Source: Desulfuromonadales bacterium
GTDB taxonomy: Bacteria > Desulfobacterota > Desulfuromonadia > Desulfuromonadales > Geoalkalibacteraceae
Direction of reading: 5' to 3'
Length of the DNA stretch: 54,283 nucleotides
NCBI GenBank assembly: GCA_024636255.1
Contig: JAGXHK010000161.1
Location: forward strand, 1 to 54,283
In this document: piece after piece, positions 16,578 through 23,553 of the stretch
How positions within the stretch are numbered: the stretch's first letter is position 1
How the letters are laid out: every line of letters begins with the position of its first letter
The notes under the pieces: model-generated
What the model saw: the letters and a program-made list of their open reading frames with translations, nothing else
The model's database searches: none
What the model was told of the DNA's origin: nothing
Made by a program: the position numbers and the translations under genes

Positions 16578-16612
16578 TTGACAGGTTCCGGCCTTTTGTA
16601 TACTGTATACAA
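16578..16612 (+). promoter_or_regulatory. icd promoter with a double-GTATAC operator
   Basis: -35 TTGACA 16578-16583. 17-bp palindrome TTGTATACTGTATACAA 16596-16612, whose first hexamer supplies the -10 (TATACT 16599-16604). Confidence 0.65.
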
Positions 16613-16734
16613 GATTAGAGGCATAACGGCGTTATGCCTGTCGTATCAAGTGTTTATAGCTTCAGGGTTTATTTGTGCGATAGGTTGTTTTTATACAACC
16701 GTGGTTAAATTACCGCTTAACGAAGGAGAGAAAA

Positions 16735-18966
16735 ATGGCATCGAAGCAAGCAACGATTATCTGGACTGAAATTGATGAAGCTCCCGCCCTTGCGACCTAT
16801 GCGTTGCTTCCAATTATCCAGGCTTTTACCAAGGGAACTGACATTTCCGTTGAAACCCGGGATATCTCTCTTTCAGGCCGAATCATTGCCAACTTTCCCG
16901 AAAATTTGACTGAGGAGCAGAAAATACCTGATTACCTGGGCCAGCTTGGTGAACTCGTGAAGACACCCGAGGCCAATATCGTTAAACTGCCGAATATCAG
17001 CGCCTCTGTTCCTCAGTTGGATGCCGCTATTAAAGAGTTGCAGAAAAAAGGTTATGACATTCCCGATTACCCCTGGGAGGCGAAGAACGAAGCGGATAAG
17101 AAGCTTCAGGAGCGCTATGCCAAAGTTCTCGGCAGTGCCGTCAACCCGGTTCTTCGCGAGGGGAACTCCGATCGGAGAGCGGCAGCATCCGTCAAGAAAT
17201 TCGCACAGAAAAATCCCCATAGAATGATGAAAGACTGGCCGGAGAAGTCCAAGGCCAGCGTTGCGCATATGGAAAGCGGGGATTTTTACGAAACTGAAAA
17301 TTCCACCACAATGGATAAGGCGCTCGACGCCAAAATCGAATTTGTCGACGCGAGTGGCAATGTGACCTCTCTGAAAGACAAGCTTCCTCTGCTTGAAGGT
17401 GAGGTCCTTGACTCCGCGGTGATGAATGTTGCTGCATTGCGTAAGTTCTATGCCGACCAGATTGAAGCAGCAAAGCAGGATGATGTTCTTCTTTCTTTGC
17501 ACCTCAAAGCGACCATGATGAAGATTTCCGACCCCATCATGTTCGGCCATTGTGTTTCCGTCTATTTTAAGGACGCTTTCGAGAAGCACGCCGATGTGCT
17601 GAAAGAGATCGGTGCCAATCCGAATTACGGTCTGGCCGATGTCCTTGCGAAGCTTGAAAAGCTCCCCGCCGACAAAAAATCCGAAATCGAAGCCGACATT
17701 CAAGCCGTTTATGAAAAACGCTCGCCGCTGGCGATGGTCGATTCGAGCAAAGGCATTACCAATCTGCACGTGCCGAACGATATCATCATCGATGCCTCCA
17801 TGCCGAACGTCGTGCGTGACGGCGGTAAAATGTGGAATACGGAGGATCAACTTCAAGATACCCTCTCCATGATTCCTGACAGCTGCTATGCAACCACCTA
17901 CAAGACGATTATCGAAGACTGCAAGGTACATGGGCAGTTTGATCCTTCGACAATGGGAAGCGTCGCCAATGTCGGCCTGATGGCCAAGAAGGCCGAAGAG
18001 TACGGTTCGCATGACAAGACCTTTGAAGCCCCCGGAAACGGAACGATCCGCGTAGTGGACGCTTCAGGAAACACACTGCTGGAGCAGAAGGTCGAAAAAG
18101 GCGATATCTTCAGAGCCTGCCAGACCAAAGACGTGGCGATTCGCGATTGGGTGAAACTCGCCGTGCGCAGGGCGAAAGAGTCCGGAGAACCCGCCATTTT
18201 CTGGCTGGATGAAAACCGCGGCCATGATGCGCAGATCATCGCAAAGGTCAATGCATACCTCAAAGATCATGACACCAGCGGCCTGGATATCCGGATTATG
18301 CCTCCCGTGGAAGCGATGAAATTCTCGCTGGAAAGAGTCCGGAAGGGGCAAAACACGATTTCCGTTACCGGAAATGTGCTGCGTGACTACCTGACGGACC
18401 TGTTTCCGATCCTCGAGCTCGGAACCAGCGCGCGTATGCTGTCCATCGTTCCCCTGATTAATGGCGGCGGTCTGTTCGAAACCGGCGCCGGTGGATCTGC
18501 ACCGAAACATGTTCAGCAGTTCCTCAAGGAAGGGCATCTGCGTTGGGATTCTTTGGGCGAGTACTGTGCGCTTGTCCCCTCTCTTGAACTGGTATCCAAG
18601 AATTTCGATAACGAGAAAGCTGCGGTGCTGGCAGAAACTCTGGATGTCGCCATCGGCAAATTTCTCGAAAATCAGAAGCTGCCGTCAAGAAAAGTCAATG
18701 AGATCGACAACCGCGGCAGCAGTTTCTACCTGGCCATGTACTGGGCCCGGGCTCTGGCCACCCAAGACAAAAATCCTGAATTGAAGAAGCGTTTTACCGA
18801 TGTGGCAAAGCAGCTTGAAGAGAATGAGGACAAGATCAACGAGGAACTTCTCGCAGCTCAGGGCCAGCCGGTTGACATCGGCGGGTATTTCCGCCCGGAC
18901 TCTGAAAAGGCGGCTAAGGAAATGCGGCCGAGCAAAACGCTGAACGCGATCATCGAATCTGTGTAA
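16735..18966 (+). CDS. icd: NADP-dependent isocitrate dehydrogenase, monomeric type
   Basis: 743 aa, the size and sequence pattern of monomeric IDH. RBS AAGGAGAG upstream. Confidence 0.95.
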
Positions 18967-19011
18967 CAATGAACAAAGAAGGCTATGTTGTGCAATAAGA
19001 TCGGCTAAAAA

Positions 19012-19060
19012 AGGCCCGAAGAGTTCGCTGCTCCGCGCACCCTTCGGGCCTTGCCTTTTT
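19012..19060 (+). terminator. intrinsic terminator after icd
   Basis: AGGCCCGAAG ... CTTCGGGCCT 10-bp stem, then TGCCTTTTTA. Confidence 0.65.
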
Positions 19061-19118
19061 ATGTCTGCAAGCGCATGGGGATGTTCCTGGATAAAGTGCC
19101 CCTGCAACGCAAATGGTC

Positions 19119-19152
19119 TTGACAGTCAAATGATGTTTGTATACTGTATACA
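19119..19152 (+). promoter_or_regulatory. mdh promoter with a double-GTATAC operator
   Basis: -35 TTGACA 19119-19124. Palindrome TGTATACTGTATACA 19138-19152, with the same 14-nt offset from the -35 as at icd. Confidence 0.65.
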
Positions 19153-19236
19153 CGTTATATGACCTGTTGAATTTGGATTTGTCCATGCCCGCCATGTTTG
19201 GTGAGCGAAACTATCCATGTAAAGGAGAGAGAAAAA

Positions 19237-21780: not shown

Positions 21781-21782
21781 AA

Positions 21783-22604
21783 ATGGCTTACGATTACGAA
21801 AAATCGATTCGGCCCGGCAAGCTGCCCCATATCTGGTGCCCCGGCTGTGGACACGGTATCGTGATGAAGGGCCTTATCCGGGCCATGGATACCTGTGGAC
21901 TCGACAAGAATAACACCGCTATTGTTTCCGGCATCGGCTGCGCCAGCCGACTCCCGGGTTACATGGATTGTTGTACCCTGCATACCGCCCACGGCCGTGC
22001 AGCGGCATTTGCCGCTGGCGTCAAAATGGCTAAGCCGGAGATGAACGTTCTCATTGTCGGCGGTGATGGGGACGGGGTCGCCATCGGCGGCAATCACTTC
22101 ATCCATGCCTGCCGGCGCAACATGGACATGACGTATGTCGTGCTCAACAACAATATTTACGGTATGACCGGCGGCCAGTTCTCGCCGACCACACCGACCG
22201 GCGCAAATGCATCCACCACGCCCTACGGCAATCCGGATCCGACCTTCGATATCAGCAAGCTTGCCATTGGCGCCGGCGCCACGTTTGTCGCCCGGACAAC
22301 CGCATTCCATGCGACCCAGATCGATAAGCTGATCGCCGAGGGGATTAAGCACAAGGGGATGTCGGTCATCGAAGTCCTGGACGACTGCCCGACCTGCTTC
22401 GGCCGCCGCAACAAGTTCCGCTCTGTCGTTGATATGATGAAGCGGCTCAAGGAAGTCGCCGTGCCGGTGCAGGCTGCTGCCAAGATGCCCGCCGAAAAGC
22501 TGGAAGGCAAGATACTCACAGGTGTTCTCTTCAAAGAGGAGAGACCCGAGTATTGCGCCGAATATGCCAAGATCATTGAAAAGGCTAAGGGCGCAAATGC
22601 CTGA
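21783..22604 (+). CDS. korB: 2-oxoacid:ferredoxin oxidoreductase, beta (TPP-binding) subunit
   Basis: WCPGCGHG N-terminus and the GDGD TPP/Mg motif (VGGDGDGVAIGGNH). Confidence 0.9.
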   Translation: MAYDYEKSIRPGKLPHIWCPGCGHGIVMKGLIRAMDTCGLDKNNTAIVSGIGCASRLPGYMDCCTLHTAHGRAAAFAAGVKMAKPEMNVLIVGGDGDGVAIGGNHFIHACRRNMDMTYVVLNNNIYGMTGGQFSPTTPTGANASTTPYGNPDPTFDISKLAIGAGATFVARTTAFHATQIDKLIAEGIKHKGMSVIEVLDDCPTCFGRRNKFRSVVDMMKRLKEVAVPVQAAAKMPAEKLEGKILTGVLFKEERPEYCAEYAKIIEKAKGANA

Positions 22605-22631
22605 TAACCAGCTCTAAAGGAGATAACATCG

Positions 22632-23180
22632 ATGGCTGAAAGATTTGAAATTCGTTTTTCCGGTGCCGGTGGTCAGGGGCTGATTACCGCCGGGATCATT
22701 CTGGCCGAAGCGGCCTCTATCGTTGAGGGAAAAAACGCTGTACAGTCGCAGAGTTATGGCCCGGAAGCCCGCGGCGGCGCATCGAAGTCGGAGGTCATCA
22801 TTTCTGATGGTCCCATCGACTACCCGAAAGCGACCATTGTCGATGCCTGTCTGGCTATGACGCAGGAGGCGGCAGACAAATATGCAAGCGGCATCAAGGA
22901 TACCGGCGTTCTGCTTCTTGACTCCGAATTCGTCAAACGCGAGCCGCAGGGGAATTATAAAATATACAAATTCCCCATCATGCGCACCGCCAAGGAAGAA
23001 GTCGGTCGTGAAATCGTGGCCAATGTGGTTGCACTCGGCGCCATGGTTGCCCTCACGGACGCGGTTTCTCGGGAAGCAGGCGAAAAGGCCGTGCTTTCCC
23101 GTGTGCCTCCGGCATTCATCGAACTCAATAAAAAAGCATACAATCTCGGCTTCGAAAAAGTTAAGGCCCTGATGGACTAA
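22632..23180 (+). CDS. korC: 2-oxoacid:ferredoxin oxidoreductase, gamma subunit
   Basis: 182 aa with the GAGGQG motif and a SQSYGPEARGG segment typical of the gamma subunit. Confidence 0.9.
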   Translation: MAERFEIRFSGAGGQGLITAGIILAEAASIVEGKNAVQSQSYGPEARGGASKSEVIISDGPIDYPKATIVDACLAMTQEAADKYASGIKDTGVLLLDSEFVKREPQGNYKIYKFPIMRTAKEEVGREIVANVVALGAMVALTDAVSREAGEKAVLSRVPPAFIELNKKAYNLGFEKVKALMD

Positions 23181-23341
23181 AATGCTTCTCCTGTAATTTT
23201 ATTTGTTTTCCTCAGGCCCGGTTTTCCGGGCCTTTCTTTTGTCCGCTTTGCAGGGATAAACATATCTGCGAGAAACCTTTCGGGGAACAACGGGCGCAGT
23301 GCCGCACAAAAAAACGCCAGGAGCATAACCATTTCGAACAT
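23177..23341 (-). CDS. possible small membrane protein (54 aa), hypothetical
   Basis: ATG at 23341 is preceded at 5 nt by a strong SD (AAGGAGG). Hydrophobic N-terminus MFEMVMLLAFFCAAL. However, the frame runs through the korC terminator hairpin and has no recognisable family. Confidence 0.3.
   Translation of the reverse strand: MFEMVMLLAFFCAALRPLFPERFLADMFIPAKRTKERPGKPGLRKTNKITGEAF
23214..23240 (+). terminator. intrinsic terminator after korC
   Basis: AGGCCCGG-tttt-CCGGGCCT followed by TTCTTTT. Confidence 0.8.
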
Positions 23342-23518
23342 AAAGTCCTCCTTGGCTGTATGCTGACCTGGGCTAGTGACTAAATATGTCACATGGCTCC
23401 CCGGACGCAAGAACGCTGTCTTTTTTTTCAGGCGCAAACGGGAAGCACAGGCCTTGAAAAGAATCATGGTCGGTCAATCCCCCGAATCAAACAGTGTCAT
23501 GCCCTCCTATAAACGCCA

Positions 23519-23553
23519 TTGACAAGAACTAAGAGAATCGTATACAGTATACA
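23519..23553 (+). promoter_or_regulatory. acnB promoter with a double-GTATAC operator
   Basis: -35 TTGACA 23519-23524. CGTATACAGTATACA 23539-23553 contains two GTATAC hexamers 1 nt apart. The first hexamer overlaps the -10 (TATACA 23541-23546). Confidence 0.6.

Follow-up and report, generated by a model that had tools for sequence, protein, structure and literature searches.

Probable HgtR operators in the icd, mdh and acnB promoters of a Desulfuromonadales bacterium

Our analysis of a 54,283-bp stretch of DNA from a Desulfuromonadales bacterium (contig JAGXHK010000161.1 of assembly GCA_024636255.1; 57% GC), called the window below, indicates that the double GTATAC elements in front of icd, mdh and acnB are most probably operators of HgtR, a repressor of tricarboxylic acid (TCA) cycle and energy genes of about 60 amino acids that is predicted to be a ribbon-helix-helix (RHH) protein. 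We put the probability of this reading, together with the mode of action proposed below, at roughly 0.87. The three elements are a new instance of an already described system. HgtR (GSU3364, 62 aa) was footprinted on the gltA promoter of G. sulfurreducens (Ueki & Lovley 2010, Nucleic Acids Res 38:810; PMC2817479), and the protected sequence, 5'-TTGTATACAGTATACTAA-3' or GTATAC-A-GTATAC, which lies at +11 to +23 and also served as the search sequence of that paper (PMC2817479), belongs to the same 13-bp dyad, GTATAC-N-GTATAC, to which all three operators of the window are exact matches. Because the motif in the window has the same sequence as the footprint, it is the published HgtR operator, and the candidate TCA regulon put forward in a preliminary description of this DNA is the HgtR regulon.

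The double GTATAC element and its published counterpart

Three intergenic regions of the window had been described as sharing a perfect TTGACA, a gap of 14-15 nt and two GTATAC hexamers 1 nt apart, and reading of the sequence confirmed this layout (Table 1). The distance from TTGACA to the first G of the operator is 14 nt at icd, 14 nt at mdh and 15 nt at acnB, and an operator that begins this far from the -35 hexamer takes in the -10/start region of a sigma-70-type promoter. The start codons of icd, mdh and acnB follow the operators at a distance of 98-143 nt. They consist of two tandem 7-bp units, TGTATAC-TGTATAC, and the acnB operator is made of the same tandem TGTATAC heptads as the icd operator in inverted orientation.

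The core GTATACNGTATAC has exactly three matches in the window, all of them within the approximately 8% of its length that is intergenic, and dinucleotide-preserving shuffles gave no match in any of 100 trials, which bears out the earlier argument that three copies in 54 kb are unlikely to have arisen by chance; a chance origin of the three double sites was rejected on these grounds. The hexamer GTATAC itself is present in 10 copies, compared with 1.68 expected, and six of the 10 belong to the three double sites. A mismatch scan found no double site with one or two mismatches anywhere in the window and six with three mismatches, five of which are inside genes; these six look like chance matches.

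The published evidence for HgtR at this sequence comes from several directions. The gltA site was shielded against DNase I both by cell extract and by purified GSU3364, and the footprint of purified HgtR falls on precisely this sequence at four promoters (PMC2817479). Deletion of the gltA site doubled the activity of a lacZ reporter, and deletion of hgtR raised the levels of the gltA and nuoA transcripts (PMC2817479). The site was reported upstream of acnB, icd (part of an inferred icd-mdh operon), oorD, ato, frdC, atpG, nuoA, sfrB, gntR and other genes; relative to the -35/-10 elements it lies downstream of them, on top of them or within them (PMC2817479). The preliminary description had named HgtR as a possible regulator, and this proposal is upheld by the match to the published footprint and by published targets that include acnB, icd(-mdh) and oorD; its picture of TCA genes whose core promoter is overlapped by a repressor operator is supported by the same comparison.

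The description had also raised the alternative of a GntR-type operator; the core would then be of the GT-N-AC type and would belong to a GntR-family regulator rather than to HgtR. We consider this highly improbable. GTATAC formally contains GT..AC, a fragment of the gltA promoter was bound by the G. sulfurreducens GntR-family protein GSU3370, and the HgtR targets include a gntR gene (PMC2817479), but the binding pattern of GSU3370 differed from that of cell extracts and the authors rejected it, the protein that leaves a footprint on exactly this sequence at four promoters is purified HgtR and not a GntR-family protein (PMC2817479), and the 39 open reading frames of the window that were scanned include no GntR-family gene.

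The window and G. sulfurreducens thus share an identical core operator, overlapping targets (icd, acnB, and mdh by way of icd-mdh), promoters of the sigma-70 type with the site over or beside the core promoter, and a role in the repression of TCA and energy genes. They differ in several respects. In the window, and in a subclade of its relatives, mdh forms a terminator-delimited unit with a promoter and an operator to itself, whereas icd-mdh of G. sulfurreducens was inferred to be one operon; acnB directly follows korC, in a gene order that is not that of G. sulfurreducens; and all three sites overlap the -10 region, in contrast to the gltA site at +11 to +23. As had been described, korD carries no more than a half-site, a single hexamer where oorD of G. 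sulfurreducens has a full site, and pyc has no site at up to three mismatches. These differences are lineage-specific rearrangements of a known regulon.

Conservation across Desulfuromonadales

Related loci were collected with the Mdh protein of the window from one genome per GTDB species, giving 80 loci. The best Mdh matches, at 80-86% identity, come from metagenome-assembled genomes (MAGs) of Desulfuromonadales, Desulfuromonadaceae and Geopsychrobacteraceae, followed by Malonomonas rubra, Trichloromonas, Trichlorobacter, Pelotalea and Geobacter; the species of the window is itself absent from the 80 loci, the best identity to any species representative being 86%. The gene order aspS-icd-mdh-korDABC(-acnB) is conserved and is shared by most of 40 related Desulfuromonadales loci. 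In the window and these 40 loci we counted 42 instances of the operator with at most one mismatch, every one of them intergenic and upstream of icd, mdh, korD or acnB, and 34 of the 42 operators are preceded by TTGAC at a distance of 14-15 nt. Conservation at orthologous promoters, which had been named beforehand as one of the points on which the proposal could fail, is strong. The extended consensus of the 42 instances reads TTT-GTATAC-T-GTATAC-A, and the acnB sites are the same pair of heptads in the opposite orientation.

The distribution of these sites over the four genes is uneven. An icd site (at most one mismatch) is present in 22 related loci, as TTTG(T/C)ATACTGTATACA. An mdh site is found in five loci (L041, L042, L047, L061 and L079), which keep the TTGACA layout and share with the window a long icd-mdh or aspS-mdh spacer. 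The acnB site occurs in four loci (L041, L055, L060 and L061), as GTATAC(A/T)GTATGC, and there too TTGACA is kept. Five loci (L044, L045, L047, L051 and L057) have a one-mismatch double site upstream of korD, which the window does not have, and the korD-type sites have no TTGACA at the 14-15 nt spacing.

This pattern bears on the idea that the conserved block is a promoter element, such as an unusual -10 or discriminator, that is read by RNA polymerase or a sigma factor rather than by a repressor. The spacing to the -35 hexamer, fixed in 34 of the 42 instances, and the TATAC(T/A) held within the block would both be expected of such an element. Recognition by sigma-70 makes no use of a perfect double palindrome, however, the korD-type sites stand without TTGACA at that spacing, and the acnB site is inverted; moreover, the gltA copy at +11 to +23 is outside the promoter and its deletion raises expression (PMC2817479). 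A pure promoter element is thus a very improbable explanation, and a repressor operator placed at a fixed distance from the -35 hexamer is the reading that we retain.

The 49 Mdh loci from outside Desulfuromonadales served as controls. A single one of them, described further below, carries the element; the other 48, which amount to about 857 kb and include Anaeromyxobacter, Melioribacteraceae, Myxococcota and alphaproteobacteria, contain no site, and no double site was found in 40 unrelated metagenome loci or in the hgtR loci. The comparative data widen a published regulon centred on Geobacter to several families of Desulfuromonadales, and they point to lineage-specific rewiring, in which a separate mdh promoter acquired the operator and korD lost it. 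Such data are of use in the metabolic modelling of metal- and sulfur-reducing bacteria, although no new principle is involved.

The mdh promoter of the window (19080-19160) and the icd and mdh promoters of L041 (7330-7380 and 9860-9910) are similar beyond the -35 hexamer and the operator, with a common stretch that reads ..GCAACGC(T)CAAA..CTTGACAGTCAAA..TGTTTGTATACTGTATACAC.. This similarity suggests that the separate mdh promoter may have arisen by duplication of the icd promoter, or that the spacer may hold a further conserved element.

The HgtR repressor and its proposed mode of action

With the knockout primer of the published study we recovered G. sulfurreducens hgtR from a metagenome contig (L009); its product, MGKMRENPRYNVISMRISDEERDRLQAIMEATHKSVSDIMREAMELFSVQLEQSQSTDQKAA, is of the published length (62 aa), has Met4 and Gln59 as the paper does, and fits the primer-extension primer given there (PMC2817479). 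A database search returned 970 homologues of HgtR, and an exhaustive search gave 267 clusters at 50% identity; the homologues include entries named by NCBI 'hydrogen-dependent growth transcriptional repressor [Desulfuromonadaceae bacterium]' and proteins of Trichlorobacter, Geotalea and Oryzomonas. Among the homologues the N-terminal segment NPRYNV(I/V)S(M/L)R hardly varies; it is presumed to be the DNA-reading ribbon, and its near-invariance fits the invariance of the operator. An AlphaFold model of the HgtR monomer has an extended segment at residues 11-17 and two helices at 19-32 and 36-61, as would be expected of an RHH protein (predicted local distance difference test score, pLDDT, 79).

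In G. sulfurreducens, hgtR has an RpoN-type promoter, is induced by hydrogen and is essential for growth on hydrogen, its product was predicted to be an RHH protein, and the gene just upstream codes for a putative enhancer-binding protein that has an Fe-hydrogenase-like domain (PMC2817479). Later work tied hgtR induction to down-regulation of the TCA cycle near the thermodynamic limit of Fe(III) respiration. Wherever the contigs of homologues extend far enough (P0086, P0042, P0339 and P0328), we found hgtR directly downstream of a gene for a sigma-54 activator with Fe_hyd_lg_C and FeS domains and upstream of RNase G; around the fifth of the five homologues examined, the divergent 57-aa protein P0278 (L133), the neighbouring genes are different and do not include such an activator. 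Many members of Desulfuromonadales carry the HgtR/activator gene pair. No contig accession prefix is common to the loci of HgtR homologues and the operator-bearing icd loci.

By analogy with G. sulfurreducens, hgtR would be transcribed from a sigma-54 promoter in response to hydrogen or another surplus of reductant, its activator probably being the adjacent enhancer-binding protein with the Fe-hydrogenase-like domain. HgtR would then bind the tandem heptads, as it has been shown to do in G. sulfurreducens on the identical sequence. Two dimers would most likely be bound, one on each GTATAC palindrome, the centres of the palindromes being 7 bp apart. Once bound, it would exclude RNA polymerase, promoter occlusion being suggested by the position of the site, and icd, mdh and acnB would be turned down together, with a consequent reduction in acetate oxidation. 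Among RHH repressors that act on short tandem repeats, MetJ binds 8-bp metboxes, and the omega repressor of plasmid pSM19035 binds 7-bp heptads. The likeness to these systems lies in a small protein with a predicted RHH fold and in an operator built of adjacent short repeats with centres 7 bp apart, and this spacing of the repeat units makes one dimer per unit, with cooperative binding, plausible for HgtR. HgtR, for its part, does not resemble any solved structure significantly in sequence and has no known co-repressor, and its control is apparently exerted through its own transcription. A coordinated down-regulation of citrate synthase, aconitase and isocitrate dehydrogenase by electron or carbon status is also brought about by ArcA in E. 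coli and by CcpC/CcpA in Bacillus subtilis (PMC2817479), although the protein families, operator sequences and signals involved are unrelated to those of HgtR.

Several observations weigh against this reading. The -10 assignment is ambiguous and not settled: the proposal that the first hexamer doubles as the -10 element is plausible but unproven. TATACT would be used at a short spacer of 15 nt, a 17-nt spacer gives TACTGT, which agrees with the consensus at just 3 of 6 positions, and a consensus promoter scan called the acnB promoter only, as TTGACA-18-TACAGT. A tblastn search found no hgtR in the 54-kb window or in the 80 Mdh loci, and no gene for its activator lies within the window; because the search of this genome covered the 54-kb window only, we infer that HgtR is encoded elsewhere in it. 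The membership of HgtR in the RHH class is borderline and weakly supported by sequence, its score against Pfam RHH_1 (20.5 bits) being exactly at the cut-off, that against DUF6290 (22-25 bits) under the cut-off of 27, and a match to NCBIfam RelB also below threshold. HgtR had no match with E < 0.08 among PDB sequences, and a Foldseek search of the PDB with the 62-aa monomer returned none either. Finally, the regulon is not identical to that of G. sulfurreducens, since korD lacks the full site that oorD has.

With hgtR missing from the window and korD already decayed to a single hexamer, the sites might be seen as evolutionary relics in a lineage that has lost the repressor and in which no regulation is left. 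We regard this as very unlikely. Three perfect sites (12/12) would not persist without selection, relatives in which the promoter sequence on either side has diverged still have perfect or near-perfect sites at the same positions, and HgtR homologues are common in Desulfuromonadaceae-type MAGs. Functional HgtR operators account better for this persistence, and icd, mdh and acnB can be annotated as probable HgtR targets. It would be predicted that hydrogen, or a surplus of electron donor, switches off acetate oxidation in this organism as it does in G. sulfurreducens.

The regions upstream of six diverged hgtR homologues (L121 5731-6003, L122 5453-5725, L128 2816-3088, L131 5731-6003, L136 2731-3003 and L138 2731-3003) have features in common. 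All six contain a sigma-54-type promoter, TTGGCA(T/C)G..TA(T/C)T(A/G)GC with GG-N10-GC spacing, followed directly by an invariant single box, GTGTATAC, and all six have a second invariant box, GTGTATACTTTT(G/A)GCCA, about 130 nt upstream. These single TGTATAC boxes suggest that HgtR may regulate its own gene through single heptads, or that the upstream box may be part of the binding site of the activator. If autorepression through single heptads holds, the lone korD hexamer of the window could still be a functional weak site.

The only one of the 49 non-Desulfuromonadales Mdh loci to contain any site is that of Deferribacter thermophilus BMA (L066, NZ_JAPNXM010000001.1), which belongs to a different phylum and has a GC content of 35% at this locus. 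Its sites are at 4411-4423, 4574-4586 and 7626-7638: two are perfect copies of GTATAC-A-GTATAC that stand behind TTGACA boxes, one of them upstream of acnB at a distance of 16 nt from its TTGACA and the other upstream of icd, and the third, with one mismatch, lies 160 nt further upstream of acnB. No Deferribacter-labelled HgtR homologue was found by a search of representatives, among cluster names, by a profile search seeded with members that looked AT-rich, or in one contig look-up. The Deferribacter sites would imply that the operator, and presumably its cognate repressor, crossed phyla or predates their split. Taken together with the possible autorepression of hgtR, they raise the possibility, which we advance tentatively and consider rather doubtful, that HgtR-type control is broader and more self-contained than published.

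Genes and other features of the locus

Profile matches and the hairpins around each unit (Table 1) bear out the earlier view that icd, mdh and acnB are the downstream genes in terminator-delimited units of their own. The post-icd hairpin (19011-19052; -27.2 kcal/mol, z = -5.3) was missed by the consensus terminator scan because its loop is too long.

Table 1. Coordinates of promoter elements, operators, genes and terminator-like hairpins of the icd-acnB region, as positions in the window.
Feature	Position	Strand	Remarks
Terminator-like hairpin after upstream LysM gene	16436-16470		Consensus scan
-35 hexamer TTGACA, icd promoter	16578-16583	+	Read from sequence
HgtR-type operator TTT-GTATAC-T-GTATAC-AA, icd	16595-16612	.	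Core 16598-16610, overlaps -10/start region; exact match
icd, monomeric NADP-isocitrate dehydrogenase	16735-18966	+	TIGR00178, 1224 bits
Terminator-like hairpin and T-run after icd	19011-19062	+	Separates icd from mdh
-35 hexamer TTGACA, separate mdh promoter	19119-19124	+	Read from sequence
HgtR-type operator TTT-GTATAC-T-GTATAC-AC, mdh promoter	19136-19153	.	Core 19139-19151; exact match
mdh, malate dehydrogenase	19237-20193	+	NF004863, 457 bits
Terminator-like hairpin after mdh	20225-20250		Consensus scan
Single GTATAC hexamer upstream of korD	20332-20337	.	Possible residual or weak half-site, function uncertain
korDABC, 2-oxoglutarate:ferredoxin oxidoreductase	20435-23180	+	Between mdh and acnB; without full operator
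Terminator-like hairpin after korC	23214-23233		Consensus scan
-35 hexamer TTGACA, acnB promoter	23519-23524	+	Read from sequence
HgtR-type operator C-GTATAC-A-GTATAC-A, acnB	23538-23554	.	Core 23540-23552; exact match
acnB, aconitase B	23683-26223	+	TIGR00117, 1385 bits
Terminator-like hairpin after acnB	26258-26281		Consensus scan

The leaders of icd (about 125 nt, 16611-16734) and acnB (about 130 nt, 23553-23682) are more stably folded than shuffled sequences, with z-scores of -2.9 and -2.2, respectively, and the icd leader opens with a perfect 9-bp hairpin (16619-16639) directly after the operator. An Rfam scan of the whole window for leader RNAs or riboswitches gave no matches. Structured 5' untranslated regions of icd-mdh and gltA have been mentioned for G. 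sulfurreducens as data not shown (PMC2817479).

Between the korC terminator and the acnB promoter lies a small open reading frame on the minus strand (23180-23341), divergent from acnB. It would encode about 54 aa from an internal ATG that follows AAGGAGG, with a hydrophobic N-terminus, MFEMVMLLAFFCAALRPLFPERF, and it ends at the hairpin at 23214-23233, which is bidirectional; Pfam gave no match to its product. Further downstream (34265-46322), the window has two sets of type IV minor-pilin-like genes in succession. A very large PilY1-like protein closes each set (1070 aa, 36710-39922, and 1304 aa, 42408-46322), and pilB is located at 52171-53895.

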